A program made the translations under genes and the position numbers. Positions 3,531 to 40,391 of a DNA stretch of 45,402 nucleotides are shown here, one piece after another. The stretch lies in assembly GCA_013202525.1 (NCBI GenBank), contig JABMQS010000118.1, forward strand, positions 1 to 45,402. Direction: 5' to 3'. Position 1 is the stretch's first letter. Every line of letters starts with the position of its first letter. Origin of the DNA: Candidatus Omnitrophota bacterium. GTDB taxonomy: Bacteria > Omnitrophota > Gorgyraeia > JABMRG01. Under the pieces are notes generated by a model. That model saw nothing but the letters and a program-made list of their open reading frames with translations. It was not told the DNA's origin and ran no database searches.

Positions 3531-3532
3531 GG

Positions 3533-4513
3533 TTAACGGGTTCCCAGTATATTATCGATCGCCCACATCACATCATCAGGAGGAATCTGTTGTATGCATT
3601 CAATACCGAATCTGCATAATGCCTTCTCGCACGGAGAACAGCTCCTCTCTATCCTGGCTACCTTGCTTTTGTGGGAGAGGGGGCCGTACTTCTTGTAGTC
3701 AGTCGGACCGAATATCGCCACTGTAGGCACACCTACCGCGCTTCCGATATGAAGCGGGGCAGAATCATTGGTCACGAGCAGACTGCATTGCGACAGAAGG
3801 TATGCAAGCTCCCGCAGGTTCGTGCGGCCGGTCAGATCGTAGACATCCTTTAAGCCGGCCTCTGCGATCTTTTTGTTTATGGCCTTATCATTCCCTTCGC
3901 CTACCAAGACGATCTTAAGGCCTCTCTCCTTATTTAACCTCTCGCATATATCTATGAATCCTGCTACGGGCCAGCGCTTTATATGGCTCTTGGCGCCTGC
4001 GGCTATTGCTACCATTTTGTCGGCAGTCGATATGTCCAGTTCATCCAGCATAGAGCGGACCCTCGACTTATCATTCGCTGTAACGAGAATCGAAAATGGC
4101 GCGTCTCTAACATCTATACCAATAACAGAAAGCCTGCTGAGATGCTTGTCTATTTTGTGCGGGCGCAGGGTCTTGGTCCTTAAAAACAAAGGGCTGTTAT
4201 ACCTGGCTCCGGTTAAAAGGGGAAACAGACTGTTGCGCAGATCGACAACAAGGTCAAAACCCTTCTTTCGCATCTCAAGACCGAGCTTCAGCTTTTCAGA
4301 AAGGGAGGTATGTTTGTTATATGTGATTATATCAGAGACCTCCGGGTCTATCTCAAACAGCTCCTTTGTGTTTTTGCCTGTCATGACCGTGATATCAGCT
4401 TCGGGAAACTCCCTCTTCAGCACCCTAAGGACAGGCAGTGTCAAGACAACATCGCCTATGTTGCTCAATGTTATCATAAGGATCTTCTTTACCGCGTGCT
4501 TGTATATCTTCAT
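3533..4513 (-). CDS. GT9 family LPS heptosyltransferase
   Basis: 326 aa with LSNIGDVVLTLP, KRWP, TNDSAPLHIGSAVGVPTVAIFGPT and CSPC. Confidence 0.9.
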   Translation of the reverse strand: MKIYKHAVKKILMITLSNIGDVVLTLPVLRVLKREFPEADITVMTGKNTKELFEIDPEVSDIITYNKHTSLSEKLKLGLEMRKKGFDLVVDLRNSLFPLLTGARYNSPLFLRTKTLRPHKIDKHLSRLSVIGIDVRDAPFSILVTANDKSRVRSMLDELDISTADKMVAIAAGAKSHIKRWPVAGFIDICERLNKERGLKIVLVGEGNDKAINKKIAEAGLKDVYDLTGRTNLRELAYLLSQCSLLVTNDSAPLHIGSAVGVPTVAIFGPTDYKKYGPLSHKSKVARIERSCSPCEKALCRFGIECIQQIPPDDVMWAIDNILGTR

Positions 4514-5544
4514 TTTGACTTGATCAGCCTTTCAGCAGCGGCGAGGACATCGTCGACAGATATGGCCTTCATGCAGCGGTAGTCCTCACAGTTCATGTCA
4601 TAGCAGGGTATATCACACTCATCCCACTCATGCAGAACGATATACTCGGAGGTGCCATATGGGCCTGTAATCGCCGGTAAGGTCGGACCAAACAAAGTGA
4701 CAACAGGCGTCTTTTGGCTGACGGCTATATGCATGGGGCCTGAATCATTGGCTATTACAAGAGCGGCCTTTCGCATTATAGCTGCCAGCTCCTTCAGGTT
4801 GGTCTTTGCGCATATGCTTATCGCCGAATTGTTGCTTTCACCGACGATATCCCAGCCCAGCTGTTCATCCTTCCGGGCCCCGGTAATAAGTATCTTTTTA
4901 CCGTATCTGGACTTAAGGCCTTCGCAAAGACGGGCAAAGTTTTCCTTTAGCCATCTCTTTGGAGGCCAATTTCCGCCCGGATTTATAATAAAGAACTCCT
5001 CATCCCCGGCAATGCCGTTTGCCTCAAGTATCTCATCGGCACTGGCAATAGATTCATCCGGCACAAAGAACTCATAATCCTTATTCTCTGTATCGATACC
5101 CGCAGGCCTTACGATATTCAGGAAATACTCCACCCTGTGCGGCTGTGCCTTAGGCATATCCACGGGATCTGAAAGCAGCCACGAGCGTTTCTTTGTATAA
5201 TATCCTATGCGCCTGGGTATGCCTGCAAGGGCACACATCAGCATCCTGCTCATCGAGCGGTGAAATGATATCACCGTATCAAAACCCTTACTTCTAAGCG
5301 CTAAGATAAGTGAGATCTTTCCAATTATTCCGCGGTGGGCTCCGTCCTCTTCAAAAGGTATTATCTCGTTTATATGCGGGTTTCCCTCGAGCATCTCTGC
5401 GCAGCGCCCTACCACGAGGGCGGCTATGAAGCTGTCGGGATTATGCTGCCTTATCGCCCTTATGGCAGGCGTGGTAAAGAGCACATCGCCCACCCAGTTA
5501 ACCTCGATTATAAGTATCCTCTTCATAGGCTCAGTCATCGTCAC
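4510..5544 (-). CDS. waaF: GT9 family heptosyltransferase II-like
   Basis: 344 aa with NWVGDVLFTTP, INPGGNWPPKRW and NDSGPMHIA. The exact start is uncertain (5544, 5538 or 5526). The waaF assignment among several GT9 paralogues is tentative. Confidence 0.8.
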   Translation of the reverse strand: MTMTEPMKRILIIEVNWVGDVLFTTPAIRAIRQHNPDSFIAALVVGRCAEMLEGNPHINEIIPFEEDGAHRGIIGKISLILALRSKGFDTVISFHRSMSRMLMCALAGIPRRIGYYTKKRSWLLSDPVDMPKAQPHRVEYFLNIVRPAGIDTENKDYEFFVPDESIASADEILEANGIAGDEEFFIINPGGNWPPKRWLKENFARLCEGLKSRYGKKILITGARKDEQLGWDIVGESNNSAISICAKTNLKELAAIMRKAALVIANDSGPMHIAVSQKTPVVTLFGPTLPAITGPYGTSEYIVLHEWDECDIPCYDMNCEDYRCMKAISVDDVLAAAERLIKSK

Positions 5545-7442: not shown

Positions 7443-7559
7443 GAGACGCTTACCAGTTTGTTCGGGAACCTGTCCTGAACTTGTTCGGGAAAGTGTCTTA
7501 GGGTACAGGTTCGTGCTTGGGTTGGTAAACGTCTCGTGCTTGGTTTGGTAAACGTCTCG
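7443..7559. repeat. Composite repeat: 23-bp tandem duplication, an inverted partial copy, and a small hairpin
   Basis: TCGTGCTTGG(G/T)TTGGTAAACGTC occurs at 7511-7533 and 7534-7556. GAGACGCTTACCA at 7443 is an inverted near-copy. TTGTTCGGGAA occurs at 7458 and 7481. Confidence 0.8.
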
Positions 7560-9645
7560 ACAAAAGTTGCTCGACTGCTGTGGCGACCTCCTCGGGGGAG
7601 ATCTCTTCCATGCACTCTATGTGCGCGCATTTCGCCTTATAGCAGGGCGAGCACTTCATCTCCTTGTGTATAAGCTTATACGCTACGCTGTCTGTCTCGA
7701 TATGCCTTTTAGGATCTGTTGGCCCGAATAACGCGACAAAAGGCACCTTTAAAAAAGCAGCCAGATGCATAGGCGCAGAGTCAGAGGTGACAAAGGCCCC
7801 GCACATCTTTATCAGCGCAGAAAGCTCCATAATGCTCGTCTTTCCTACGCAGTCTATGGGCTTGCTCCGGGTAAGCATGAGCAGTCTCCTGGCCTCTTGC
7901 ATATCATCCTTTGTGCCTGTGATAACCACCCTTATCTTCTTCTGGGCAAGCAGGTCGCATAGTTTAGCAAACTTCTCAGCAGGCCATTTCTTGGTCTGCC
8001 ATCGCTTGCTTGCTGTGCAATTCAACCCCACCAGCACCTGATCTTTGCCAAGCCAGGCCTCAGAAAGCATAGATCTTACATGCTCCATCTCCTCATCCAG
8101 GATCTTGAGCTCAAGGCCTTTGGGCATCATGCTTATACCGAGGAGTTTCAAGAGCCTGAACTGATGAGCTACCGGAGCCATGCCTATGCGCGCACCGCCT
8201 ATGGTTTCATTCATAAGTATGTCGAACTTGCCGCTTTTATACCCTATCCTGCGCGGCACAAGAGACAGAAATGAAAGCAGGTGGCTCTTTTTATTATTCT
8301 GCAGATCGAGCACCATGTCGATCGATGAACGCCTAAGCTCGGAAGCCAGGGCCAGTATCTCCCTGATGGCCTCAACGCCTCTCCTGTTCTGATATATAAA
8401 AAACTCACCCACATAGGGATAGCGGCTTAATATCTGCCTGCCCTGCTTACTGGTAACCAGCGCAATATCGGCTCTGGGAAATTTTGCCTTTATGGCCATA
8501 AGGGCCGGTAGGGAGAGTATTATATCACCCAAGGCGCTCCACTTCAGTATGACTATCTTAAATGAATTCAGGGCCTCCTGGTAGACCTTTATGGTCTTGG
8601 CATACATCTGAGAAAGGCTGAAGTTCTTCTCAACGCTCATCCTGCCTGCCTTTGATAATCTCTGCCTCAAGGCCTCATCCTTCAGGACCTTTATGATAGC
8701 GTCTGAAAGCTCGTTCCAGTCGCGCGGCGCGACCAGTATACCGTTTTCGCCATCCCTTATAATATCGACTATACCGCCTATCTTGCTTGCAATAACCGGT
8801 ACGCCGCATGCCTGCGCCTCAATAATCGCCCTTCCAAACGCCTCCTCGCCTACAGAAGGCATAACGACCAGGTCAAGCTTTGCCATCTGGCGCGGCATAT
8901 CATGCCTACTGCCTAAGAAATGGATATACTTGGATAATGAAAGCCTCCTCACCAGGACCTCAAGCTCCTGCCTGTATTTCGGTTTTGAGGCCGGGGCATC
9001 GCCTATTATCACAAGTTTGACCTTTGGCATCAACCTGACCACCTTTGTCATGGCACGGATAAGGGTAATGTGGCCCTTTATAGGCGTGATGCGCCCGATT
9101 ATGCCTATGGCATACTCTTTCTTCGCAGAGTCCGCACCAGGCGCCCTATACGTAAATCTTTCGAGATCAACGCCCCTGGGTATCAAACGTATCTTTTCGC
9201 GCGCAACCCCAAAATCCTTTATCATATGGCGCGCTATAAGATTGCTTGCCACTATTACATACCTGCCCCAGCCCATGACCCTGCTTAAGATATGGGTGGA
9301 ATAATAGCCATGGCATGTTGTTATAAAAGGAACCTTTGTCTGATATGCCGCAAAAAACGATGAGATAGCAGGCACCCTGCTCCTTGCGTGCACTATCTGG
9401 ATATTCTCCTTTTCTATTATCACCCTTATCTTCTTTATCGTGCTGAATACCGTTATGGGAGACTTTTCATGCACAGGCAGACAATAATGAATAGCTCCTG
9501 AGGCCGTCAGGTCCTTGACGAGCTTTCCACCGTTTGAGATCACCACTGCCTTATGGCCCTGCTTAATAAGCTCTCTGGCCAGGTCAACAGTCCCGGTCTC
9601 AACACCGCCGCTCTTTAATTCTGGTAGTATCTGGAGAATGTTCAT
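7498..9645 (-). CDS. Fused GT4 glycosyltransferase / GT9 heptosyltransferase
   Basis: 715 aa. The N-half is GT4 (SGGVETG, EAFGRAIIEAQACG). The C-half from about aa 362 is GT9 (KWSALGDIILSLP, KKWP, SDSAPMHLAA, FGPT, CSPC). Confidence 0.9.
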   Translation of the reverse strand: MNILQILPELKSGGVETGTVDLARELIKQGHKAVVISNGGKLVKDLTASGAIHYCLPVHEKSPITVFSTIKKIRVIIEKENIQIVHARSRVPAISSFFAAYQTKVPFITTCHGYYSTHILSRVMGWGRYVIVASNLIARHMIKDFGVAREKIRLIPRGVDLERFTYRAPGADSAKKEYAIGIIGRITPIKGHITLIRAMTKVVRLMPKVKLVIIGDAPASKPKYRQELEVLVRRLSLSKYIHFLGSRHDMPRQMAKLDLVVMPSVGEEAFGRAIIEAQACGVPVIASKIGGIVDIIRDGENGILVAPRDWNELSDAIIKVLKDEALRQRLSKAGRMSVEKNFSLSQMYAKTIKVYQEALNSFKIVILKWSALGDIILSLPALMAIKAKFPRADIALVTSKQGRQILSRYPYVGEFFIYQNRRGVEAIREILALASELRRSSIDMVLDLQNNKKSHLLSFLSLVPRRIGYKSGKFDILMNETIGGARIGMAPVAHQFRLLKLLGISMMPKGLELKILDEEMEHVRSMLSEAWLGKDQVLVGLNCTASKRWQTKKWPAEKFAKLCDLLAQKKIRVVITGTKDDMQEARRLLMLTRSKPIDCVGKTSIMELSALIKMCGAFVTSDSAPMHLAAFLKVPFVALFGPTDPKRHIETDSVAYKLIHKEMKCSPCYKAKCAHIECMEEISPEEVATAVEQLLSRRLPNQARDVYQPKHEPVP

Positions 9646-9753: not shown

Positions 9754-11652
9754 TTAGAAAAGCCCAGCAAGGGCATCCTCTATCCTGCCTGAATCATCCA
9801 ATATATTCTGTTTGGGGCTGTTCTTAAATACATCTGAAATAGCAGAGCAGGTCTCTCCTGTGTTGACCACCTTTACATAATCACCCTCTGCCATGTTTTT
9901 CAGGAAGGCCTCGTGCCTCTTGTCCTGCAGCGCTCTTTGCCTGAATACGATTGTGTAGGCATCCGAAGACGCTGCCTCTGATATCATGGATATGCTCTCC
10001 TGTGAAACCAGGACAATATCGGATAGACCTATTATCCCTTCTACCGCGCCCTCTATATTATCCTCATTGGCAATTATCAAAAGCTTGCAATCAGGATTCC
10101 TGCCCAATCTCATCCTTAACAGTTCTTCTACATCCCCGGGTGTGCGCCTTGATGTAGTAAGGAGTATATCAGCATCATATTCTGAGGCGGCCTTGATAAG
10201 CTCATCCAGCAATGTACCTACAAGATCCTTATCCATCTTGAAGTCCTTTGCAGGGCCGCCTATCAACACGCCTATCACCCTCTTCTTCAAAGTGCCTGTT
10301 ATCTTATTAAGCTCCTGGCTGTTGCCTTGTAGGCTTTCGTGGTTAATAAGGTTTAGGGCGCCGTCTGTAACAACGACATTCTTAAGCTTAACGGGATTAT
10401 CATGCCTTGGCACAATGGCCAGATCAAATCTCTTTATATTGATAAGCGAGGGCTTCATGATCACAACCGACTTTGCGTTGTTCTCCCTGGAGACCAGCAG
10501 GTTCACGCCTGCAGTGGATGAGCCGCAGGATATGACTATATCGGCATAAGTCTTCATCAGCTCCCTGTATGATTCAGGCTCAAGGCTAAAACGCAGCAGC
10601 CCTTTATAAAACTTCCTCCTGAATCTTACATCCAAAATCCTTATCTTCAGATCATCAAGGCCGTTGCCTTTCTTATGCCATATATCACGCAGTTTATACG
10701 CAACCGCCTCTGACTGTCTTAAGTGGCCTGTCCTGGTATCATTCAGGATAAGCACTTCCCTGCTCGGCGTGGATTTCCAGCGCCTGTGCTGCCACAGCCA
10801 CTGGTCAGGATAGGCCTTTATCATCTCCTCTAAGCAGGAGATATACTGCCTGAAGCCCTCCTTGATGATCTCTTCCCTGTCTCCGGACTCAGGAAGCTTT
10901 ATAGGATCAAAGACCTTAAATCGGATATAGGGGCCCTTCTCTCTTGCGGCAAAACCTGGCAGTATGACAGCCCCTGTCTTTAAGGCCATATCCATTACAC
11001 CGGGATTCCAGGAGGCCTTCCTTCCAAACAGATCCACAAGTACACCGTTTTTTCCCGCATCCTGGTCTACGAGCATACCAACTATTCTGTTGGACTTCAA
11101 GGCCCTGAATGCCTCTTTTACTGCCGGGCCTTTTGATATTATCCTGCAGCCGCCCGATTCTCTGTGCTTATCCAGGAGTTCATTGAGCAGATAGGGCTTC
11201 TGCTCCCTTGCGATACCTGTATAAGGAAACCCCTTAAAGGGAAGCGCAATATGCGACATCTCCCAGGTGCCAAAATGGCCTGTTAAGAATATAAATCCTT
11301 TTCCCTTCTTAAGCGCCTCTTCCGCATGATGAAAATCCTCAAATTTTATGCAGCGCGTAATATGTCTCTTATCCAATTTAGGCAGGATCAGTATCTCTAT
11401 AATACCCTGACCGATATTGGCATAGGTCTTTTTTAGTATTGCCTTAAGCTCCTTCAGGCTATGGGTATCCCTGAAGGCTGCCTTAAGATTCGCGTAGGCT
11501 ATCCTTCGGCGCTTTGAGTTAAGGGACATAGACAACAAACCAAGCCGCCTTCCAATAAAGAGCGCCATACCTACCGGCATGAGCCTGAATATAAACCCGA
11601 GCCCTTTAGCCAGGTAATACAGCAGATAATCTCCCAAAGAGACCTTCTTCAT
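9754..11652 (-). CDS. lpxL: Lipid A late acyltransferase (LpxL/HtrB family) fused to an ELM1/GtrOC1-like GT-B domain
   Basis: The N-terminal ~295 aa have GHFGTWE (HxxxxE), LVDQD and PDQWLWQHRRWK. The C-terminal part has GHLRQSEA, VISCG, VPRHD, LIGG, TTSRRTP and ESISMISEAASS, typical of ELM1-family proteins. Confidence 0.85.
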   Translation of the reverse strand: MKKVSLGDYLLYYLAKGLGFIFRLMPVGMALFIGRRLGLLSMSLNSKRRRIAYANLKAAFRDTHSLKELKAILKKTYANIGQGIIEILILPKLDKRHITRCIKFEDFHHAEEALKKGKGFIFLTGHFGTWEMSHIALPFKGFPYTGIAREQKPYLLNELLDKHRESGGCRIISKGPAVKEAFRALKSNRIVGMLVDQDAGKNGVLVDLFGRKASWNPGVMDMALKTGAVILPGFAAREKGPYIRFKVFDPIKLPESGDREEIIKEGFRQYISCLEEMIKAYPDQWLWQHRRWKSTPSREVLILNDTRTGHLRQSEAVAYKLRDIWHKKGNGLDDLKIRILDVRFRRKFYKGLLRFSLEPESYRELMKTYADIVISCGSSTAGVNLLVSRENNAKSVVIMKPSLINIKRFDLAIVPRHDNPVKLKNVVVTDGALNLINHESLQGNSQELNKITGTLKKRVIGVLIGGPAKDFKMDKDLVGTLLDELIKAASEYDADILLTTSRRTPGDVEELLRMRLGRNPDCKLLIIANEDNIEGAVEGIIGLSDIVLVSQESISMISEAASSDAYTIVFRQRALQDKRHEAFLKNMAEGDYVKVVNTGETCSAISDVFKNSPKQNILDDSGRIEDALAGLF

Positions 11653-12637
11653 CCTTCACCTTTAGTTTGATCCTTAGTACCAGGAATTCTAATTTACATG
11701 AATCGGGCACCAGTCTTTTAAGCTTGACCCAGTCCTTCTGTGTCGTAACAACAGTATCTATCTTCTTGTGATTACATACGGATATGATATCATCAAAATC
11801 ATATTCTTTATAATCATGGTGATCCATATAGAGAAGGCTTGATTCTATCTTCACGCCTAAGCATTCAAGGGTTTTAAGGAATGAGGCATTGTCCCCAAGA
11901 CCTGCGACAGCACAGACATTCTTGCCCCTTATTGATTCAAGAGTAATCTCTTTACTCTTATTGCTATAGAATGAGACCGGTTGATGCATAGACTCTAATA
12001 TCTCTATACCTGGCTTGGCCTTCAGGATGACCTTCTTTATCCGAGCCAGCGCATCTCCTGATACAAGATCTGTCTTTGTTATTATAATCAGATCAGCCCG
12101 GAACAGATGCGAAACAGGCTCTCTTAATATACCTGCTGGTATCAGAAGACCTGAACCAAATGGATCAGCGCCATTCACAACCACTATGTCAAGGGCTCTC
12201 TTTATTCTTAAATGCTGAAAGCCATCATCCAGCACAAAGATATCCGGTACTGCTTCCTGCTCTTTTATCCTGGCGTTCTTTACCCTGTCCTTCCCAGCTA
12301 AGACAGATACCCCGGGCATATTCTCAGCAAGGGCCTTGTCTTCATCGCCGCCATATCCGCGCGTCAAAAGACAGACCTTCTTACCCTGCGCCTTAAAATA
12401 CGAGCATATGGCCTCCACCAGCGGCGTCTTACCTGTGCCGCCCCATGTAAGGTTACCGATACTTATTACCGGCACCTTTAGCTGGGCACCCTTAAATATA
12501 CCAAACCCATAGAAAGCCAGGCGCAGATTAATGGCCAGAAGGTAGAATAGAGAGAGAAAGACCAACCCTGCCTTTAGCATTAAACCGAAAGGCCCGGAGG
12601 GCCTTTCGGTAATTATATTATAGAGATATGCTCTCAT
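11606..12637 (-). CDS. lpxK: Tetraacyldisaccharide 4'-kinase
   Basis: SIGNLTWGGTGKTP P-loop, TRGYG, LDDGFQH, PAGILRE and TTQKDWVK. Start moved to the ATG at 12637 because the longer ORF reads through a REP element. Confidence 0.93.
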   Translation of the reverse strand: MRAYLYNIITERPSGPFGLMLKAGLVFLSLFYLLAINLRLAFYGFGIFKGAQLKVPVISIGNLTWGGTGKTPLVEAICSYFKAQGKKVCLLTRGYGGDEDKALAENMPGVSVLAGKDRVKNARIKEQEAVPDIFVLDDGFQHLRIKRALDIVVVNGADPFGSGLLIPAGILREPVSHLFRADLIIITKTDLVSGDALARIKKVILKAKPGIEILESMHQPVSFYSNKSKEITLESIRGKNVCAVAGLGDNASFLKTLECLGVKIESSLLYMDHHDYKEYDFDDIISVCNHKKIDTVVTTQKDWVKLKRLVPDSCKLEFLVLRIKLKVKDEEGLFGRLSAVLPG

Positions 12638-12666
12638 AATGTGCGTTGTAATCCCTGGGTATACTC

Positions 12667-12695
12667 GCCGGGACAGGAATGTCCCGGCTATCCAG
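12667..12695. repeat. Single REP-like unit
   Basis: GCCGGGAC-AGGAAT-GTCCCGGC-TATCCAG; intergenic. Confidence 0.85.
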
Positions 12696-12738
12696 ATGCC
12701 CAAATGTCACGGCTATTCAAAGGGGTGGTTCTTTGCCT

Positions 12739-14250
12739 TTACTCATCGCCTATATAATAACAGAGATTTACAAAGACCCATATTTTGCCTGTCTTAGGAC
12801 CGGCAAATTCCTCCATGGCATAACCGATGATCTTGCATCTCTTGGTAGCCTTCATTGCGACACCCGGGATAGAAGAAGATGTTAAGGGGTCTCCAATAGA
12901 GATTGCTCCATTTTCTACATTCACTTTCGTCGGGACCTGCCCTACCAGTGCAATTGGCTCCCTATCTGGCCTTGCCTTATCTTCTACCGGAGTACCATAT
13001 CCACCAATCACTAAACCCGCTGTATCGAAGCTTGATACTACACCAGTAAGTTTCTTATCATATGGGCCTTTTGTCTTTACAAGTTTCTTATCCGGTCCAA
13101 ACGAAACCAGGTCCCCTGGCTCAAGTTTATCTTCTTCGGCAACATTCATCATCTCAGCAAGATCAGTAGTACTGCCGTAGTAACTACCTCCAGCGTATAA
13201 TGAGCCAACTGCCAAATCTTGATATGCACTGCTATCGCCTCTGGATAAATAACACCAGGTAGTCCCCGTACCATACTTTGGCCACATACCAAGCCTCCAC
13301 CCTCCTGTAACTTGTGAATTATCACTACTGCCTATCCAGCCGGTTGCACCACTAATATCCAGGCCAAAGGCTGGATTTGTATTATTTATACCGACATTGC
13401 CGTCAGGATCAAGTGCGATGGTCGTTGAACCGCTTCTGATACGGAACGTATCTTCCGCACTTGACCCGTAACCTACCCAGGCCATTTCAGAAGCTGCGCT
13501 ATTATAAAAACCTATATACGTATTCATCTCTATCTCGGTTGTCGCATTCATATCATAAAGCGCAATAATGGGAGAAGGACCATATATGTTAAACTCGTGT
13601 GGTGCAGTACCTACGCCAGCGCCGCTGTTTCCGCCTATCGAAACGTTGCCGGTGTCCCCTTCTATCATCATCACATATTTTCCCCATACGCCACCCGCGA
13701 TATCCCCAAAATAGAAATTCCTGTTACCGTGCATACCAAAGAGCAACCCGCCTGCCGGAAAGGTAATGGCAGAGTGAGGTGTGCCGCCAGGAGCGGTATC
13801 ACTGAAGCGTATTGCCTCTCTCCAGCCACCGGCAGTCACAGGGCTATTTACGGCATCTATATCTAATGTTGCACCGGGAGTCGTTGTGCCAATACCAACA
13901 TAGCTCAAGGGGCTGCCTTCTGCGTTTATCACAAGGGGTCGATAATTGACCCCAGTCTGATATGCCCTTATAAAACCCGCGTCTATATTGACATCATATC
14001 CGATCTGCACATGACCATCCGGATTTGTAGTGTGGGTATCGTTTATAACGTGCAGGCCGCCGGCTTCACTATTGAAGGTGGCCAAGCCAATAACATTGAG
14101 TTCTGAAGCATTGAGCTCATCATAATCACCGTATGGAGCCGGATAGTAGGTGGAAAGTGTTACCTCTTCCGCGGCATACGCGTTCGCGGGAAAGATACCC
14201 AACGCGGCCACCCCTGTTAAAATGGTTAACACTAAAAGCCCTTTGCACAT
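12739..14250 (-). CDS. Secreted tail-fibre-like protein A (STYYPAPYG N-terminus; DxAE-type intramolecular-chaperone-like C-terminus)
   Basis: AGGAGG RBS and a signal peptide ending AYA. EEVTLSTYYPAPYGDY follows, then repeated (G)xV(G/S)IG junction motifs. The C-terminus reads DLAE..LEPGDLV..GVVS..IALVGQVPTKV..IGDPLTSS..GVAMKA..IIGYAME. Confidence 0.75.
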   Translation of the reverse strand: MCKGLLVLTILTGVAALGIFPANAYAAEEVTLSTYYPAPYGDYDELNASELNVIGLATFNSEAGGLHVINDTHTTNPDGHVQIGYDVNIDAGFIRAYQTGVNYRPLVINAEGSPLSYVGIGTTTPGATLDIDAVNSPVTAGGWREAIRFSDTAPGGTPHSAITFPAGGLLFGMHGNRNFYFGDIAGGVWGKYVMMIEGDTGNVSIGGNSGAGVGTAPHEFNIYGPSPIIALYDMNATTEIEMNTYIGFYNSAASEMAWVGYGSSAEDTFRIRSGSTTIALDPDGNVGINNTNPAFGLDISGATGWIGSSDNSQVTGGWRLGMWPKYGTGTTWCYLSRGDSSAYQDLAVGSLYAGGSYYGSTTDLAEMMNVAEEDKLEPGDLVSFGPDKKLVKTKGPYDKKLTGVVSSFDTAGLVIGGYGTPVEDKARPDREPIALVGQVPTKVNVENGAISIGDPLTSSSIPGVAMKATKRCKIIGYAMEEFAGPKTGKIWVFVNLCYYIGDE

Positions 14251-14316
14251 CTTACACCTCCTTTTTTTGTGGAATATTCTATTACGCCTTTTTTGCCTTA
14301 TGGCTTAATCCCGTAA

Positions 14317-15846
14317 TCAAATATTCGATTCCTGTGCAGCCGGTCGGCTAGGCGGCATATCTTGTTTCTTCACCTGATATTCCACGCCGAACTTGTCAAA
14401 ACCATCTCTTGCTGTCTTGTCTTTTCTCGTGCCTACTGCCAGCACATTATAACTACCATCTCTCTCAGCCTTGATATAAATTTTTGCCATAGCTTTATCG
14501 GTCTCGGCATATGCCCTACCAAAATGCCTCACAGGTGAAACCCAGAGTTGCACATTTTCATTGAGATGTTTAAAATAGCCTGGCAATATAATATCTGCCT
14601 GACCATCCTTTACATCAACCTGCCACCTATAGATATTGTCCCCTCTCGTCGGGCTCTCAACAAAACAGTGCTTCAAACGCCAGCCTTCTTTCTCTTTAGC
14701 TGGATCGGGATGAGCAATATCAAAACTCCCGGAGCCTTTGGTAAGCGCTCCGTAGCCTGATGACCCATTACCTATGTGAGTACCTAAGGTTCCGCCGTAC
14801 CAATTAATATATGTAGCGTATCCTCCGACTCGAGAATCAAGATGCAGATTGCCATTTGATACACCATATGTAGCGTCATCGGCTCCTAGCATACCTTGTG
14901 ATTGGCCCCCTACTAACAGATTAGCACTATAAGTTGAATTGGGCCCAAAAATCATCATTCTATCATTTGCCACATGCAACGCCTGTTGCGGACTTGTTAT
15001 ACCAATACCTACACGGCCGTTATCTTGTATAGTCATTAAGGTACCAGCACTTCCTACATTATACGCTGCTCCTACTGATTCTTGAGCACGGCCGAAGTGG
15101 AGTTTCCATCCTGTATTATCACCAAAACGAATTACGCCAGCATCAGGTGAACCTGTAGAGCCATCCAAAGATATACCAGCAACAGGACCTCCAACATCCA
15201 GTTGATATGCTGGATACGCCCCCCCGATACTAACGTTGCCAGTATCTGCTTCTATAATCATTACATATTTTTGCATCGTGCCACCCATCATATCCCCAAA
15301 ATAGAAATTCCTGTTACCGTGCATACCGAAGAGCAATCCTCCTGCCGGAAAGGTAATGGCAGAGTGAGGATTCGTGCCGGCAGGAGCGGTATCACTAAAA
15401 CGTATTGCCTCTCTCCAGCCACCGGCAGTCACAGGGCTGTCTAGGGCATTTATGTCTAATGTTGCACCAGGAACTGTCGTCCCAATGCCAACACGGCTCA
15501 AGGAGGTGCCTTGCGCGTTTATCACAAGGGGTCGATCACCGACACCAGTCTGATATGTCCTTATAAAACCTGCGTCTATATTGACATCATATCCGATCTG
15601 CACATGCCCGTCCGGGGTCGGGTCTGCAGCGGTATCGTTTATAACGTGCAGGCCGCCGGGCTCATTATTGTAGGTGGCCAAGCCAATAACATTAAGTTCT
15701 AAAGCATTGAGCTCATCATAATCACCATATGGCGCCGGATAGTAGGTGGAGAGTGTTACCTCTTCCGCGGCATACGAATTCGCGGAAAAGATACCCAGCG
15801 CAACTACCCCTGTTAAAATGGTTAACACTAAAAACCTTTTGTACAT
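14317..15846 (-). CDS. Secreted tail-fibre-like protein B (paralogue of A with a different tip and C-terminal domain)
   Basis: Start moved to the ATG at 15846 (MYKRFL) by alignment with paralogue A. Same signal peptide and STYYPAPYG region, with GNVSIG and GRVGIG motifs. The C-terminus reads GSGSFDIAHPDP..LKHCFVESP..LPGYFKHLN..GTRKD. Confidence 0.75.
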   Translation of the reverse strand: MYKRFLVLTILTGVVALGIFSANSYAAEEVTLSTYYPAPYGDYDELNALELNVIGLATYNNEPGGLHVINDTAADPTPDGHVQIGYDVNIDAGFIRTYQTGVGDRPLVINAQGTSLSRVGIGTTVPGATLDINALDSPVTAGGWREAIRFSDTAPAGTNPHSAITFPAGGLLFGMHGNRNFYFGDMMGGTMQKYVMIIEADTGNVSIGGAYPAYQLDVGGPVAGISLDGSTGSPDAGVIRFGDNTGWKLHFGRAQESVGAAYNVGSAGTLMTIQDNGRVGIGITSPQQALHVANDRMMIFGPNSTYSANLLVGGQSQGMLGADDATYGVSNGNLHLDSRVGGYATYINWYGGTLGTHIGNGSSGYGALTKGSGSFDIAHPDPAKEKEGWRLKHCFVESPTRGDNIYRWQVDVKDGQADIILPGYFKHLNENVQLWVSPVRHFGRAYAETDKAMAKIYIKAERDGSYNVLAVGTRKDKTARDGFDKFGVEYQVKKQDMPPSRPAAQESNI

Positions 15847-15862
15847 TTTGCGCTTCCTTTTT

Positions 15863-17137
15863 TTATGCTGCGTGTAAATTCTCAATGCCCGCTAAGGTCA
15901 GATCTGATGCGCCCTTATTTGCAGCAACCAATTCCTTTGCGTTCTCACCTAATCTATTGCACAATTCTGTGTCTTCCAAGAGGCGGGTGAGGGCCTCTTT
16001 GAAAGAACCATTATCCTTAACCATTATCGCGGCATCTTTGCTCAAGAAAACAGATGCTATATCACGGAAATTAAAGGTGTGCGGCCCGAATACTATCGGC
16101 CTTGCGAATACGGCCGGCTCTATCATATTCTGTCCGCCCCTTTTTACGAGACTGCCGCCTACAAAGACTATATCAGCGACACTGTAGAACTTCTTAAGTC
16201 CTCCTATAGTGTCGAGAAGGAATATCTCGCCGTGCGTTGATTGAATTATTTTAGAAACACATATTGGCACAAGACCGTGGTTCTGTACTATCTTCTCAAC
16301 TTCGGCGGTGCGTTCAATATGCCGTGGAGCTACTAAGAGCTTTAGGTTTTTATGTCTATCTTTCAGATTTGCGTAACAAGAAATGATGATCTCCTCTTCG
16401 CCGGGATGTGTACTGCCACAGACAAGAAGCTTATCGCTCATCCCTAAGCCTAAAAGGTTTCTTAAATCATGCCTTTCTTCATCAGATGCTGTAACAGGCA
16501 CAGCATTGTCGAACTTCATATTGCCTGAAACCTTTACTTTAGATGGGTCTGCCCCTAATGAGATGATCTTTTCTCTGTCTGACTCAGTCTGCATAAAAAA
16601 GGCCGTTATCTTCCTCAATACAGGCCTTAGCATAACCCTCACAAGGCTATAGCGCCTAAAAGAACCCTCTGAAATCCTGCCATTTACCAATACCATCGGA
16701 ACCTCGCTCCTGCGCGCCTGCCTTATCAGATTAGGCCATATCTCCGTCTCTGTAATAATGAGCATAGACGGCCTGATATGCGATATCACCCTTTTGACTA
16801 TTAAACTTATGTCAAAGGGCAGAAAAAGGACTATCTCATCGCCCTTTGCCTTGGCCTTTGCAACAGCATTTCCTGTCTCAGTTACAGTGGTTATGACTAT
16901 GCGTTTATCGGGAAAACGGTGGCGCAGACGCTCAATAAGGGGTGATACTGCCATGACCTCACCCACGCTTACCGCATGGACCCAGATATTTTCACGCCCC
17001 TTTAATGCCGTGAGCAGCTCCTCAGGATACATCCCAAGGCGCAGGTTCAAGCCCTGCCTCTTTTTTCCTTTAAAAAGAAAGACAGGTATATAAAGAAGAG
17101 CAAATATGATAAAGATCAGATCGTATATTATTCCCAT
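15863..17137 (-). CDS. waaA: Kdo transferase
   Basis: WVHAVSVGE, LPFD, ETEIWPN, NGRIS, GNMKFD, GSTHPGEE, APRHIER and GGQNMIEPA. Confidence 0.95.
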   Translation of the reverse strand: MGIIYDLIFIIFALLYIPVFLFKGKKRQGLNLRLGMYPEELLTALKGRENIWVHAVSVGEVMAVSPLIERLRHRFPDKRIVITTVTETGNAVAKAKAKGDEIVLFLPFDISLIVKRVISHIRPSMLIITETEIWPNLIRQARRSEVPMVLVNGRISEGSFRRYSLVRVMLRPVLRKITAFFMQTESDREKIISLGADPSKVKVSGNMKFDNAVPVTASDEERHDLRNLLGLGMSDKLLVCGSTHPGEEEIIISCYANLKDRHKNLKLLVAPRHIERTAEVEKIVQNHGLVPICVSKIIQSTHGEIFLLDTIGGLKKFYSVADIVFVGGSLVKRGGQNMIEPAVFARPIVFGPHTFNFRDIASVFLSKDAAIMVKDNGSFKEALTRLLEDTELCNRLGENAKELVAANKGASDLTLAGIENLHAA

Positions 17138-17158
17138 ATAGATTTATCTTCTCTAAAA

Positions 17159-18043
17159 TCAAGCTCGAGGATGCGCCTTCTGGTAAACATCCTTAAGCCT
17201 GTCTGTTGTAACGTGCGTGTAGATCTGCGTTGTAGAAAGGTTTGCATGACCCAGGAGTTCCTGCACCACGCGAAGATCCGCTCCCCTGTTTAAGAGATGT
17301 GTTGCAAAGGAGTGGCGCAGCGTGTGGGGCGATATCTTCTCCTGCAGGCTGGTCTTGTGTATATAACGGTCCACTATACGCCTGACAGAGCGGTCTGTTA
17401 AGCGGCCTTTCCTGTTATTCAAAAATAAGACCTTCTTCTTGTCCTGACGCATCTTGGTTGTGGCATCCACATAATTCCTTATGGCCTTAATGGCCTTCTC
17501 GCCTATAGGCGCAAGGCGCTCCTTCTTTCCCTTGCCATATACCTTTATAACCCCTCCGATGAAATCGCAGGCATCTGTATCCATACCAACCAGCTCAGAG
17601 ACCCTCATGCCCGTGCTATACAATGTCTCAAGTATCGCCTTGTCTCTTAAACCCACAGCATCATCGCCGGGCGCCTCAACCAGTTTCGCAACCTCCTTCT
17701 CCTGCATGAAGACCGGAAGCTTCTTCTCCTTCTTTGGCGTAGACATGCCGGCCAGAGGATTGTGCTTAAAGAGGCCTTCCTTTGTAAGAAATCTAAAGAA
17801 ACTCCGCAAGGCTGAAAGGCATCTTGCAATAGAAGCACGGGAGAGCTTTCTCTCTCTGAGGTGCGCAAGAAACTGCCTTATCAGCAGGTAGTCTATCTTT
17901 TCAACCTCTCTATCGCCTAAGAACGCTTGAAACTCCTTGAGGTCTCTTTTGTAATTTGTAACCGTATGAGGCGAGGCCTCTCTCTCTATCTCAAGGTACC
18001 TTATGAACTTATCGATATATCTTTGGATCTGCTTGTCTGCCAA
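17159..18043 (-). CDS. xerC: Tyrosine recombinase XerC
   Basis: Catalytic residues in [25 protein letters not shown] and [12 protein letters not shown]. Position downstream of dprA-topA is the usual xerC context. TTG start. Confidence 0.88.
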
Positions 18044-18072
18044 TCTCTAATCCTTCTTAGAACATTTCCGCA

Positions 18073-18100
18073 GGCGGGACAGGAATGTCCCGCCTATCCA
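18073..18100. repeat. Single REP-like unit
   Basis: GGCGGGAC-AGGAAT-GTCCCGCC-TATCCA between topA and xerC. Confidence 0.85.
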
Positions 18101-18111
18101 AATGCCAAACT

Positions 18112-20283
18112 TTAGTCCTTTTTAGGCGGCTCTGCTGGAGGAGCCTGCTCCGGAAGCTTCCTCGAGGTAAACCTGCAGTCAGGGTAGTTGGAACAGCCAT
18201 AGAAAGGCCCGCGCGTTGAATATCTTTCAAGGAGCTTGCCATTGCAGCCGGGCTGAGGACAGGCCACCTTTGTTGAAAAGGGCTTTGCGTTCTTACAGGT
18301 GGGGTAGTCTGAACAGCTCAGGAACCTGCCGCGGCGCGAATACTTGACCACCATGGGCTTGTTGCATTTGTCGCATATCTCATCAGTGCCTTCGGCCTCT
18401 ATAAGCTCTATCTTGCCATCCTCTGTCCTCTTGGCAGGCTTTGAGTTCTTGCATTTTGGAAAGCCGGAACAGCCCAAAAACGTTCCTCTCCTCGACCAGC
18501 GGAATAGCATCGACTTTCCGCACAGGTCACACTTATAATCTGTGGGGGTCTTTTGCTGTTTCATGTCCTCCATCTTGACGTGTGCCTGAGAAAGGTCCTT
18601 GGCAAAGGGTTCATAGAAATCCTTTAAGACATCCGGCCACTCCATAACGCCTTCCTCGACCTTATCCAGCTCATCCTCCATGCCTGCCGTAAAGCTCACA
18701 TTCAGGATATCCGGAAAATGCTTTACTAGGAGCCTGGTCACCACTATGCCGACCTCTGTCGGATAGTAGTAGCCGTTTCTCCTCTCAACATAATGGCGCT
18801 GGACGATAGTATATATTATCGGGGCGTATGTGCTCGGACGCCCTATGCCCTTCTCCTCCAGCTCCTTTACCAGGGAGGCATCTGAGAATCTGGCCGGCGG
18901 TTTTGTAAAATGCTGTGAAGGCAAAAGCTTCATCAGCTCAAGGAGTTCTCCTACCGTAAGAGCGGGGATATTGATCTTGTCGTCTGATTCAGCATTATCA
19001 TTTAAGCGAAGGAAACCGTCAAAGGCCAACTCGCTCCCGGAAACCCTGAATAGGTACTTCTTATCCTTTTTGGCCTTATCCTCGGCAATAATATCGACGG
19101 TCTTGATCTTAAAGGCTGCCTGGGCCATAAAGCTCTGCAGGAACCTTCTCCAAATAAGTTCATAGAGTTTAAACTGATCCGGGGCCAAGTATTTCTTTAT
19201 CTTATCCGGGGAATTGTACACAGAAGTGGGCCTTATAGCTTCATGCGCTTCCTGAGTCTTCTGCTTTGAGGCCTTTGGCTTTGGCGGGTTTTTGCAGATA
19301 TACTCCTTGCCAAAACTCTTTGTAATATATCCTATTGCCTGGGCCTGGGCCTCCTTGGCAACTCTTGTCGAGTCGGTCCTCATATATGTTATAAGGCCAG
19401 TACTGCCTTCCTCGCCCAGGTCAAGGCCTTCATAGAGCTGCTGGGCGACCCTCATGGTGCGACTCGCGGAAAAACGCAGCTTATTAAACGCCTCCTGCTG
19501 CATTGTGCTGGTGATATACGGGGCCGATGGCCTCCTCAGCTTCTTCTGCTCCTTCAGTCCGGAGACGACAAAGTCCCTTTTCTCCAAAATAGAAACCAGC
19601 TCATCCGCCGCTTCCTTTGAATCTATCCTGGGCTTTTTGCCTTCTATCTGCGCAAGCTTTGCAATAAATCGAGAGGGGCTCTTTAGTTTTGCGAGCTCTG
19701 CCTCTATCTCCCAGTACTCCTTGGCCTTGAAGGCGTTTATCTCATCCTCTCTCTCGACTATCAAACGCAATGCCACAGACTGCACCCTTCCGGCGCTTAA
19801 ACCCCTGCCAACCTTCTCCCACAGCAATGGTGAGAGGCTATAGCCCACTACCCTGTCAAGTATCCTCCTGGCCTGCTGGGCATTGACCTTGTTTATGTCT
19901 ATATCGCGCGGGCTCTTAAAGGCCGCCTCTATGGCAGACTTTGTGATCTCGTGAAACTCCACCCTCATACCCTTCTTGCCGGGCGCGACCAATTCACGCA
20001 TAAGGTGCCAGCTGATAGCCTCGCCTTCCCTGTCCGGGTCGGTTGCCAGATATATCACGGCCTTGCCCTTTGCCTTCTTCTTTAAGTCACTCAGTATCTT
20101 CTTGCGGGATGGTATGACCACATATTTCGGCTTGAAGTTATTCTCTATGTCCACACCCATACCGCTGGACGGCAGGTCTATAAGGTGGCCCATGGAGGAT
20201 GTGACATCATAACCTTTGCCCAAAAACTTGAGCAATGTCCTGCACTTTGCAGGGGACTCCACTATTACGAGTGATTTTTTCAT
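18112..20283 (-). CDS. topA: DNA topoisomerase I
   Basis: IVESPAK, ATDPDREGEAI, SAGRVQS, ITYMRTDS and GIGRPSTY, with three C-terminal Cys4 zinc ribbons. Confidence 0.97.
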   Translation of the reverse strand: MKKSLVIVESPAKCRTLLKFLGKGYDVTSSMGHLIDLPSSGMGVDIENNFKPKYVVIPSRKKILSDLKKKAKGKAVIYLATDPDREGEAISWHLMRELVAPGKKGMRVEFHEITKSAIEAAFKSPRDIDINKVNAQQARRILDRVVGYSLSPLLWEKVGRGLSAGRVQSVALRLIVEREDEINAFKAKEYWEIEAELAKLKSPSRFIAKLAQIEGKKPRIDSKEAADELVSILEKRDFVVSGLKEQKKLRRPSAPYITSTMQQEAFNKLRFSASRTMRVAQQLYEGLDLGEEGSTGLITYMRTDSTRVAKEAQAQAIGYITKSFGKEYICKNPPKPKASKQKTQEAHEAIRPTSVYNSPDKIKKYLAPDQFKLYELIWRRFLQSFMAQAAFKIKTVDIIAEDKAKKDKKYLFRVSGSELAFDGFLRLNDNAESDDKINIPALTVGELLELMKLLPSQHFTKPPARFSDASLVKELEEKGIGRPSTYAPIIYTIVQRHYVERRNGYYYPTEVGIVVTRLLVKHFPDILNVSFTAGMEDELDKVEEGVMEWPDVLKDFYEPFAKDLSQAHVKMEDMKQQKTPTDYKCDLCGKSMLFRWSRRGTFLGCSGFPKCKNSKPAKRTEDGKIELIEAEGTDEICDKCNKPMVVKYSRRGRFLSCSDYPTCKNAKPFSTKVACPQPGCNGKLLERYSTRGPFYGCSNYPDCRFTSRKLPEQAPPAEPPKKD

Positions 20284-23175: not shown

Positions 23176-23961
23176 TTATCCTCCTTGTATAAAACGTAAG
23201 ATATCATTGCCCCATAAGATGGCCACAACCGCTGCCAGCGAAAGATACGGCCCGTATGGGATTATCTCGGCTTTGTATTTGATCTTCATGATCAACCCTA
23301 CACCGGCGCCGAAGAACGGCGCTATAAAATATATAAGGACAACATACTTAAGGCCCACAAAGGCGCCTATCATGGCCAGAAACTTCACATCCCCGCCGCC
23401 CATGGCCTCCTTCTTAAACATGAACTTCCCTAAGACGCCTGTAAGGTATATCAGTAACCCGCCTGCCAAGAGCCCGAGGCCTGAAGCAAGCAATGACCTC
23501 AACCTGCCTGAGGCACCGTGCAGCTGCGGGAAAAGAAGGCTAAGGAGAAGGCCCAGCACCATGCCGCCATATGTTATCTCATCCGGTATGATCTGGTGTT
23601 CAAAATCTATAAAGGTGGCCACGATCATGCCGCAGGCAAGAACTATATATGAAAAACTGCTTATACCGACTCCGAGCTGGCTTAAAAAAAGGACAAAGAC
23701 GCCTGCTGTCAAAAGCTCAACGATCATATACCTGGGTGATATCCTCTCCTTACAATAACGGCACCTGGCCCCGAGTATGATAAAACTCAGCACAGGTATA
23801 TTATCATACCAGGCAATCGCATGCTTACAGCGAGGGCAGTGCGACGGCGGGTTCACCACCGATCTCGAGCCGGGCATGCGGCATATGCATACATTCAGGA
23901 AACTGCCTACTATTAATCCGAATATGATGGCAAGAATGAGTACTGCTATATTCATCTGCAT
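23176..23961 (-). CDS. pilD: Type IV prepilin peptidase/methylase
   Basis: GSFLNVCICRMP, SHCPRC..CRYC, FIDFEHQIIPD, MGGGDVK and PYGPYL. The start is 23961 or 23955; the longer ORF reads into a REP doublet. Confidence 0.93.
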   Translation of the reverse strand: MQMNIAVLILAIIFGLIVGSFLNVCICRMPGSRSVVNPPSHCPRCKHAIAWYDNIPVLSFIILGARCRYCKERISPRYMIVELLTAGVFVLFLSQLGVGISSFSYIVLACGMIVATFIDFEHQIIPDEITYGGMVLGLLLSLLFPQLHGASGRLRSLLASGLGLLAGGLLIYLTGVLGKFMFKKEAMGGGDVKFLAMIGAFVGLKYVVLIYFIAPFFGAGVGLIMKIKYKAEIIPYGPYLSLAAVVAILWGNDILRFIQGG

Positions 23962-23981
23962 AAATTCTGCTGTTGAGCTCC

Positions 23982-24046
23982 TTGGATAGCCGGGACATTC
24001 TTGTCCCGGCATCAGTAGGCGGGACTAGAAAGTCCCGCCTATCCAA
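23982..24046. repeat. Inverted REP-like doublet
   Basis: TTGGATAGCCGGGAC-ATTCTT-GTCCCGGC ... TAGGCGGGAC-TAGAAA-GTCCCGCCTATCCAA. Confidence 0.9.
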
Positions 24047-36947: not shown

Positions 36948-37313
36948 TTATGGCTTAAACGAATATGTGCCAGTCACAGTACCATTCTTATTCTTCTCGT
37001 ATGTCTGTCCAGAATAGCTGCCTTTTCTCCTGGTCGCCTGAATAGTGTAATCATTGCTGTCTGCATTACTTATTACAGTCGTCCAGTGGCAATTTGTAAT
37101 CGATACATCAAGGTTGCCTATGACGTTGGTGTACTCGTCCTCTTCTACATAGTAGATGGCCTCTCCTGTCTCAAGCGCTGCTATATTGGAGTCTGCCTCG
37201 GCTCTCTTTGCCTTTTCTACAACTGTACCGAACTGCGGTAGAGCGATAGTAGCAAGAATACCTAAAATAATGACTACTATCAGCAGCTCTATAAGCGTAA
37301 AACCTTTCCTCAT
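36948..37313 (-). CDS. pilA: Type IVa (major) pilin, 121 aa
   Basis: MRKG/FTLIELLIVVIILGILATIALP class III signal peptide with E5, and an AGGAGG RBS. Having its own promoter and terminator suggests it is the major subunit. Confidence 0.88.
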   Translation of the reverse strand: MRKGFTLIELLIVVIILGILATIALPQFGTVVEKAKRAEADSNIAALETGEAIYYVEEDEYTNVIGNLDVSITNCHWTTVISNADSNDYTIQATRRKGSYSGQTYEKNKNGTVTGTYSFKP

Positions 37314-37350
37314 CTCACCCCTCCTTTTTCTGTTATCAACTCTTTTAATA

Positions 37351-37379
37351 ATTATACCCAAAACCCACATTTATGTCAA
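37351..37379 (-). promoter_or_regulatory. Perfect-consensus sigma70 promoter of the pilin gene
   Basis: Minus strand reads TTGACA-17 nt-TATAAT. Confidence 0.85.
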
Positions 37380-37414
37380 GCCTTAATTTGTCTATATCTT
37401 AAGTTTCTGGGGCA

Positions 37415-38644: not shown

Positions 38645-38671
38645 AACGCCTTTCCTGACACTAAGACGGCT

Positions 38672-40381: not shown

Positions 40382-40391
40382 AGACTATCCC

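Follow-up and report, generated by a model that had tools for sequence, protein, structure and literature searches.

What kind of protein starts from the same secreted base as its neighbour, ends in a different fold and is encoded within an array of lipopolysaccharide (LPS) genes? The question is raised by two tandem genes, here called A and B, that lie between waaA and lpxK on the minus strand of a 45,402-nt stretch of DNA from Candidatus Omnitrophota bacterium (contig JABMQS010000118.1 of GenBank assembly GCA_013202525.1), referred to below as the window. Omnitrophota are an uncultured group of bacteria, ultra-small for the most part, and are suspected to live on other cells. We consider it likely that A and B are paralogous, Sec-exported, homotrimeric mosaic fibre adhesins, predicted to be displayed at the cell surface. 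Their closest characterised counterparts are the mosaic adhesive trimer (MAT) fibres with which the predator Bdellovibrio bacteriovorus recognises its prey, among them Bd2133, Bd1334, Bd3182, Bd2439, Bd2734 and Bd2740 (Caulton et al. 2024, PMC10769870). Each chain of A and B would consist of four parts: a cleavable leader, a tag of about 22 residues, an intertwined beta-helical shaft of GxVGIG repeats and a swappable end module.

The shared base and its break point

The two genes, their common N-terminal part and the sequence directly upstream of each start are as follows.

12739–14250, minus strand: gene A (P0001), predicted secreted fibre protein of 503 aa (open reading frame and translation)
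14317–15846, minus strand: gene B (P0002), predicted secreted fibre protein of 509 aa (open reading frame and translation)
13630–14250, minus strand: A copy of the duplicated base, aa 1–207 (protein and DNA alignments)
15220–15846, minus strand: B copy of the duplicated base, aa 1–209, with leader, tag, linker and one shaft repeat of ~90 aa ending in GNVSIGG
14173–14250, minus strand: putative signal peptide of A, aa 1–26 (read by eye)
15769–15846, minus strand: signal peptide of B, aa 1–26 (read by eye), with cleavage predicted after S-Y-A
14251–14270, minus strand: shared A-run and GGAGG before A (DNA comparison of both genes)
15847–15866, minus strand: shared A-run and GGA before B, ribosome-binding site (RBS) region, overlapping the waaA stop codon

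Read by eye, the leaders of both proteins have a basic n-region, a hydrophobic core and a small-x-small c-region (S/A-Y-A), and thus look like N-terminal Sec signal peptides of the kind that MAT fibres carry. A preliminary description of this DNA, made from its letters alone, had reported tandem genes with a Sec-type signal peptide and a common start running through TYYPAPYG, and the open reading frames (ORFs) and translations agree with this. For B, an in-frame TTG upstream of the ATG would give a protein of 522 aa instead of 509 aa.

Similarity between A and B is far above chance (BLASTP E = 2e-118) and amounts to 84% amino acid identity over the shared base. The codon alignment of this region contains 84 differences in 621 sites, with a synonymous divergence (dS) of 0.32 and a ratio of nonsynonymous to synonymous divergence (dN/dS) of 0.32; the ratio is lowest, 0.14, in residues 27–60, the tag segment. 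The common stretch of about 620 bp noticed earlier is real, but "near-identical" was too strong a term for it because nucleotide identity is ~86%. Identity continues into the ~20 nt upstream of each ATG, an A-run followed by GGA that in B starts within the waaA stop codon, and DNA comparison places the A-run/AGGA of the preliminary description upstream of both starts.

Past GNVSIGG the DNA alignment of A and B falls to noise level, as abruptly as had been claimed, and the protein alignment retains weak, repeat-type similarity to about aa 300 and none thereafter. Residues 119–220 of B correspond to one shaft unit of ~90 aa and are 55–68% identical to internal repeat units of other fibre proteins. 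Module boundaries coincide with GNVxI(G) motifs, in line with the breakpoints proposed earlier: the A/B break lies inside GNVSIGG, and the A-type end module starts at a GNVGI motif (aa 283–285) in 10 of 72 listed homologues and, in others, a few residues ahead of it. Because the break and the end-module starts sit at repeat motifs, with aa 119–220 being a repeated unit, the sequences fit a duplication followed by distal replacement through recombination at these motifs. The pair would have arisen by tandem duplication of the RBS, leader, tag and first shaft repeat (dS ~0.3), after which the distal part would have been replaced at the GNVSIGG repeat junction. The C-terminal halves are not simply diverged paralogues, as they have two different folds.

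Shaft and end modules

Beyond the shared base, each protein continues into a shaft of its own and a terminal module.

13402–13629, minus strand: A-specific shaft, aa 208–283 (protein alignments)
14752–15219, minus strand: B-specific shaft, aa 210–365, with GxVGIG-type repeats; aa 232–308 align with the Bd2133 and Bd3182 fibres
12742–13401, minus strand: terminal module of A, aa 284–503, comprising the GNVGI motif, a conserved pre-cleavage segment of ~80 aa and a chaperone-like domain
12742–13164, minus strand: intramolecular-chaperone-like domain of A, aa 363–503, starting with D-L-A-E (13153–13164, aa 363–366); weak PF11962 match, Foldseek match to 3suc
14320–14751, minus strand: terminal module of B, aa 366–509, an unnamed conserved beta-sandwich domain and presumed binding tip

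As a single sequence, B gave a weak match to the solved fibres Bd2133 and Bd3182 (E = 0.004), and a PDB search with A returned a chance-level match to CdiA and nothing else (E = 0.23). A profile headed by A and built from A, B and 26 relatives (profile A2) was searched against PDB sequences and found five MAT structures: 8ond (Bd2133; E = 8.1e-18), 8oml (1.2e-9), 8ojn (4.5e-8), 8ol4 (3.1e-5) and 8on4 (1e-4). The MAT entries in the PDB hold C-terminal parts only, and all of the alignments pass through shaft repeats of the form GxVGIG.....L.V. Structure comparison gave a similar picture, with 8ond ranked first by Foldseek for the B model (E = 1.9e-4) and 135 proteins at E ≤ 0.001 among the predicted viral structures of BFVD, the named ones being tail fibres, minor tail proteins, collagen-repeat proteins and chaperone-bearing proteins.

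Three copies of B aa 27–300 were modelled as an intertwined homotrimer with an interface score (ipSAE) of 0.87 (0.86–0.88 in three runs), whereas the best of three controls scored 0.00. At least 92% of contacts recur between runs, the predicted local distance difference test score (pLDDT) of the partner is at least 78, and the model contains ~1040 inter-chain contacts that are confident from residue 38 to 300. In calibration, this mark was reached by 20 of 30 proteins solved as same-chain pairs and by 1 of 23 solved as single chains; since MAT and phage fibres are solved trimers, the pass may partly reflect likeness to known folds. Confident contacts begin at residue 38, which is a hint that the first 11 mature residues may form a free tail, the residues not named being merely uncertain. 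Together, profile A2 and the trimer model point to a trimeric beta-helical shaft with MAT-type repeats. The preliminary description had called the proteins trimeric fibres and suggested trimer modelling as a check, and both the model and the homology of the shaft to MAT fibres bear it out.

The end module of A recurs in 12 proteins, cyanobacterial ones included, at 49–54% identity over 95–100% of aa 300–503. Most of these BLAST matches span from about aa 270–284 of A to its end, and more distant copies were found in records of Patescibacteria, Altiarchaeota and Acetothermia. Six of 72 listed proteins that share the module are annotated with PF11962 (Peptidase_G2). The end domain was modelled with a pLDDT mostly above 90, and Foldseek matched it to premature phi29 gp12 (3suc; E = 1.7e-4, probability 1.00), to a C-terminal fragment of gp12 (3gqh; E = 1.2e-3) and to phage head-decoration proteins of the same fold. 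Across 72 homologous segments the D-x-A-E motif is nearly invariant (D in 70, A in 70, E in 72), and it may be the counterpart of the catalytic and cleavage residues of phi29 gp12. Judged by its modelled fold, A ends in an intramolecular chaperone similar to phi29 gp12 and Peptidase_G2, although its Pfam score is below the cut-off; the weak PF11962 match, 3suc and the relatives annotated with PF11962 all favour the earlier assignment of this DLAE-initiated end. The pre-neck appendage autochaperone of phi29 gp12 (PF11962; 3suc, 3gqh) thus resembles A aa ~360–500 in fold and in its weak Pfam match, and in both proteins the domain is C-terminal on a trimeric beta-helical protein. The two differ in that A falls short of the Pfam cut-off, in that the part preceding the domain is a fibre and not an enzymatic tailspike, and in that cleavage of A is a prediction. 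Peptidase_S74 (PF13884), the other chaperone that we looked for, had no match in A or B, nor in the whole assembly (93% complete).

The end module of B is found, at 50–68% identity, at the C-termini of many otherwise unrelated fibre-like proteins, the other parts of which contain collagen, YadA-head, laminin-G, shufflon or S74 domains. The module is without a match in Pfam and NCBIfam, and the NCBIfam search yielded nothing for either A or B. Its model (pLDDT > 90) superposes through aa 397–475 on the receptor-binding domain of the Pam1 tailspike (7eea; Z = 8.0, root-mean-square deviation (rmsd) 2.3 over 68 residues) and on the tip of the R2 pyocin fibre (PA0620, 6cl6; Z = 7.2, rmsd 3.0 over 74 residues). 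The nearest atlas clusters, found by language model and structure, are mostly Uroviricota proteins without Pfam domains (scores 0.92–0.93, template-modelling score ~0.8), and two PHROG families to which no function is assigned match at ~5e-5. These clusters, the PHROG families and the tail-fibre matches in BFVD agree with the preliminary description, which likened this end to phage fibre proteins. With tailspike, tail-fibre and R-type pyocin tips, B shares a superposable beta-sandwich at the end of a trimeric fibre; unlike them, it has a conserved segment at aa 370–397 without counterpart, and sequence identity is 9–14%. The modelled fold gives the end of B the look of a binding tip that is retained, as happens in MATs without S74, rather than of a chaperone. 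Given the likeness of its beta-sandwich to tail-fibre and tailspike tips, a second chaperone-like end in B is not supported, so that of the "two chaperone-like ends" described earlier the one in A is left. As in MAT fibres, then, the C-terminal tip is variable and comes with a self-cleaving chaperone (the G2-like end predicted in A) or without one (the beta-sandwich of B).

The TYYPAPYG tag family

Directly behind the leader, both proteins carry the same short element.

14107–14172, minus strand: N-terminal tag of A, aa 27–48 (tag profile, E = 5.3e-19)
15703–15768, minus strand: N-terminal tag of B, aa 27–48, with TYYPAPYG (tag profile A4, E = 4.9e-18)

One of the 22 positions differs between A and B. 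Among 41 related genomes, 27 had matches to the first 210 residues of B, and outside the genome of A and B most of these extend little past leader and tag. The ORFs behind them all consist of a leader and the motif E-x-I-T-L-[ST]-T-Y-Y-P-[AS]-P-[YF]-G-x-Y, after which they diverge. From 23 tags we built profile A4, of 42 positions, in which the tag residues Y, P, P, G and Y are invariant (23/23 aligned sequences). Of 301 genomes sampled evenly from the phylum, 145 have the tag by this profile (134 of the 248 high-quality ones), as do 97 of 207 genera, with 1–15 copies in each genome. Its distribution is patchy by family: the tag is present in 37/41 genomes of f7, 7/7 of f9 and 8/8 of f35, in 1/17 of f5 and in 0/15 of f28. 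In the genome of A and B, these two are the sole matches to the profile, and with B as protein query they were again the only matches in the assembly (1.64 Mb).

Against 1.84 billion cluster representatives the tag profile retrieved 4364 proteins at E ≤ 0.001 (360 at E ≤ 1e-10), with A and B among the best 150; the following figures refer to the best 148 other than A and B. The strict motif is present in 147 of them and always lies at residues 12–60. Their length ranges from 58 to 567 aa (median 215), and 102 contain at least one GxVGIG-like motif. Pfam domains are S74 (13 proteins), H_lectin (3), Collar, YadA_head, G2 and Gp53-like_C (2 each), and C1q, UspA1_rep and Antiholin (1 each); all but Antiholin are end modules of trimeric fibres or adhesins, and the remaining members matched no Pfam family at E ≤ 0.001. 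Both end types seen here recur behind the tag in metagenomic proteins, the A type in P0121, P0133 and P0134 and the B type in P0004 and P0017. Named hosts that we looked up were Candidatus Orphnella occulta (Omnitrophota) and "Candidatus Omnitrophota bacterium".

When one genome per species was scanned for the strict ten-residue core, at least 119 stretches were found, with about 1 expected by chance according to our own arithmetic. By title, the 80 listed stretches belong to Omnitrophota (39), Elusimicrobia/Elusimicrobiota (25), "uncultured Planctomycetia" (7), unclassified bacteria (7), Patescibacteria (1) and Bacillota (1). Since some of the metagenome-assembled genomes concerned are labelled Elusimicrobiota, the tag is not confined to Omnitrophota. 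In 83 of 83 instances the core follows shortly after a hydrophobic leader or, if the locus or ORF is truncated, stands right at the start of what is left. A third homology search, made with the tag region and shorter proteins, gave one candidate and added nothing. The alignments thus identify the tag as a real recurring N-terminal family feature; this is what had been predicted for TYYPAP, with a profile and a paralogue count proposed as the check. A third secreted fibre-like protein, of 289 aa, is encoded in the same genome (G000 contig 35, L195:156–1025, minus strand). It contains one GNVGIG repeat and has no TYYPAPYG tag, its N-terminal motif being different and its match to the family profile weak (23 bits).

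Domains from trimeric autotransporter adhesins are also found behind the tag, with YadA_head and UspA1 repeats in 3 of the 148 family members. YadA and UspA1 are, like A and B, trimeric, modular, repeat-built bacterial surface fibres, from which A and B differ in that their conserved handle is N-terminal; neither protein matched a C-terminal YadA-type membrane anchor in Pfam at E ≤ 1. Literature searches for three tag motif strings found none of them, nor any paper that joins Omnitrophota with fibre proteins. The main genomic survey of Omnitrophota discusses giant proteins as possible adhesins, and its main text contains none of the words "fibre", "fiber" or "phage" (PMC10066038).

Genomic setting and possible routes to the cell surface

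The genes flanking the pair were assigned by Pfam.

15863–17137, minus strand: waaA, 3-deoxy-D-manno-octulosonic acid (Kdo) transferase, upstream flank (PF04413, E = 2e-63)
11606–12703, minus strand: lpxK, downstream flank (PF02606, E = 3.5e-73)

The intergenic gaps are short, 16 nt between waaA and B and 35 nt between A and lpxK. Relatives have lpxK, and a gene fusing lpxL to ELM1, directly behind waaA in 13 of 15 loci; in the other two lpxK was outside the fetched flank, once through a contig end. Because the waaA–lpxK adjacency is kept in the relatives, the A+B pair (3.15 kb) is an insertion into a conserved xerC-waaA-lpxK-lpxL array. A scan of 11500–18200 found no terminator-like site on the minus strand between waaA and lpxK, save a weak one within B (14599–14582), and its 14 promoter-like sites are near the shuffled expectation of 10.5. 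From this arrangement, co-transcription of A and B with the LPS genes is plausible. The fusion gene next to lpxK is a single ORF in the window as well (9754–11652, minus strand), joining a lipid A acyltransferase (PF03279) to an ELM1-like domain (PF06258). A further ORF of 715 aa (7498–9645, minus strand) fuses a family 4 glycosyltransferase (GT4) to a family 9 (GT9) heptosyltransferase domain, and three more GT9 genes lie at 2490–5544.

Contigs assembled run by run from four freshwater metagenomes of one study, which may be the samples that the window came from, bridge the junctions lpxK/A (11948–12899), A/B (14152–15319) and B/waaA (15577–15937 and 15927–16957). As all three junctions are bridged by separately assembled contigs, the gene order is not an artefact of a single assembly. 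Logan contigs break inside the shared repeats, as expected; those of the four runs contained no recombinant or deletion joints between the 620-bp repeats, which is uninformative because rare variants are dropped and depth is ~5. Three linked differences (T>G, A>C, T>G) at 13274–13277, in the A-specific shaft, are present in three of the four runs at a depth of ~5–6. In run X2, one contig fits lpxK to its start, at 12700, and then continues into unrelated sequence; it may derive from a relative in the same sample that has another gene upstream of lpxK.

Elsewhere, tag genes sit singly or in tandem inside other housekeeping arrays: in the pheS/pheT, argG/argH, trpB/trpA and rho/prfA intervals, directly behind argH, and in front of recA. 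Examples are L028:7107–10313, L039:6613–9608 and L182:13090–15688 (among loci L023–L042 and L181–L192), and no mobility genes were found beside the tag genes in these arrays, which come from several families of the phylum. When the ORFs around tag genes were clustered, in 20 and then 32 loci, what recurred was housekeeping synteny only (pheS/pheT, thrS-infC-rplT, recA-recX-alaS, arg, trp, rho-prfA). In 13 of 28 Elusimicrobia-type or unclassified loci the tag gene, coding for a protein of ~250 aa, adjoins an Hxs (His-Xaa-Ser) radical S-adenosylmethionine system with HxsB (477 bits against a cut-off of 370), HxsC/HxsC4, HxsD-like and HxsA4 proteins and a Barstar-like gene upstream (L127:748–7228, L119:6699–7046 and 11 more loci among L060–L137). 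As a tag-modifying partner in the present organism Hxs was rejected, the best HxsB match in its genome reaching 56.5 bits against the cut-off of 370.

How the fibres would reach and stay on the surface bears on what they are. The window itself encodes a type IV pilus/secretin machine, with genes for a pilin, PilC, PilB, a secretin, PilO and PilM at 36948–44722 and for PilD at 23176–24012, and the fibres could be its cargo or tip part, with the tag as its recognition signal. A folded trimer exported by Sec needs an outer-membrane route, and the MAT paper raises the possibility of an interplay with type IV pili (PMC10769870). However, the cluster lies 21 kb from A and B, behind topA, dprA and the aro, leu and ilv genes of aromatic and branched-chain amino acid synthesis, and type IV pilus genes occurred within 8.5 kb of the tag gene in just 3 of 20 other loci. 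Nor do secretins vary with the tag: homologues are present in 297 of 301 genomes of the phylum as compared with 145 of 301 for the tag, and also in families that lack it (15/15 against 0/15 in f28, 16/17 against 1/17 in f5). Secretins being nearly universal, their co-occurrence with the tag says nothing either way; a secretin may be necessary for fibre display, but no specific link to the tag was seen. The absence of an S74 match from this genome also speaks against the pilus machine, and we regard it as an unlikely explanation. Display through the secretin or pilus machine of the window, proposed in the preliminary description as part of an undescribed system, is accordingly not upheld. The ORF counted here as PilM is 529 aa long (43133–44722, minus strand), with the PilM domain in its first 220 residues only.

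An equally doubtful account is that the fibres are secreted and unanchored, or building blocks of a coat or matrix, such as soluble lectin-like trimers that capture polymers or decoys of phage receptors. It would suit the lack of a membrane anchor, lipobox or known sorting motif in A and B, the very short length of many tag proteins (median 215 aa in the 148, some below 120 aa) and the position of A and B inside an LPS core/lipid A operon. That position is not general, however, given the pheS-pheT, trp, arg and rho-prfA arrays in which tag genes sit elsewhere. That proteins otherwise mosaic keep the same strictly conserved tag at the N-terminus speaks for a shared step of attachment or handling, and the closest characterised relatives are surface-displayed (PMC10769870).

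That A and B are true tail fibres, left over from or belonging to a phage, tailocin or contractile injection system, is very improbable: both end modules and the shaft repeats are of phage type and a public source calls one tag protein a "tail fiber domain-containing protein", but A and B have Sec-type leaders, which to our knowledge virion fibres lack, the 45 kb window contains no phage, sheath or baseplate gene among its LPS, recombination and amino acid biosynthesis genes, and the tag heads its 1–15 genes per genome at sites scattered among housekeeping genes in 145 of 301 genomes. The earlier view of A and B as cell-encoded and phage-free therefore stands, as they lie between waaA and lpxK with no phage genes nearby.

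These comparisons leave MAT-like adhesins as the reading that we favour. According to the MAT paper, 21 Bdellovibrio MATs have a conserved beta-rich N-terminal domain of ~130 aa after the signal peptide, the partner of which is left open; tips are S74 or non-S74, and other strains may use further domains (PMC10769870). A and B share with them a signal peptide with a constant N-terminal part behind it, a beta-helical shaft in which three chains intertwine and the repeats are homologous, and exchangeable tips at the C-terminus, of which some carry a self-cleaving chaperone and others do not (self-cleavage being predicted in A). Like MATs they are cell-encoded, without phage context, and belong to a family with several paralogues per genome. 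They differ in being half the size (~500 aa against ~1000 aa), in that the chaperone of A is G2-type and not S74, and in their hosts, Omnitrophota and Elusimicrobiota, where they are known from genes alone. The claim of an undescribed system must therefore be divided: the architecture is that of the published MAT family (PMC10769870), but our literature searches found no description of the tag family.

Several observations weigh against this assignment. The adhesin role rests on analogy, and the family-wide conserved N-terminal element is ~22 residues long as compared with the ~130-aa domain of MATs. For A, the match to PF11962 (17.1 bits against a cut-off of 25, E = 0.0037, aa 349–416) is sub-threshold, and a sequence profile of its end searched against the PDB did not reach phi29 gp12, finding gp8.5 only (E = 0.16). 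For B, structural matches of the tip are confined to aa 397–481 and are middling, with Z values of 7–8 that can reflect a mere common arrangement, and a strictly conserved H and E (aa 393 and 397) may indicate a processing role for this end. No anchoring or export partner, nor any recurring accessory family, was found in the 32 tag-gene neighbourhoods. Apart from the two end domains, the chains were modelled poorly as monomers (mean pLDDT 59–60), as is expected of intertwined trimers.

If A and B are MAT-like fibres, Sec would take the chains over the inner membrane and trimers would form in the periplasm. The G2-like domain of A may nucleate folding of the trimer and then be cut off at D-x-A-E, exposing the conserved segment before it, and B would keep its beta-sandwich tip and bind a surface glycan or protein of another cell. 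The tag would hold or guide the N-terminal end of the fibre at the surface of the producer through a partner encoded elsewhere, and the two tips would provide two binding specificities for attachment to host or prey. We put forward tentatively, as a possibility with somewhat less than even chances, that the tag is a new kind of signal for sorting or docking at the N-terminus, a short linear handle common to Omnitrophota and Elusimicrobiota by which trimeric fibres, whatever their tip, would all plug into a single surface-display component. Were this so, it would amount to a plug-and-play adhesin system for small-genome, possibly host-dependent bacteria, with its cassettes placed inside housekeeping operons.

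As a large family that joins a common N-terminal handle to small, mosaic, phage-like trimeric fibres, the tag proteins would supply concrete candidates for host or prey recognition, and they are small enough to express and solve. The A/B locus would be a clear case from nature of a tip that was replaced at a repeat junction. The tag would offer a way into how such fibres are held on the cell, a question that the MAT paper also left open (PMC10769870), and with this family the MAT idea would extend beyond one predator genus to two more phyla.

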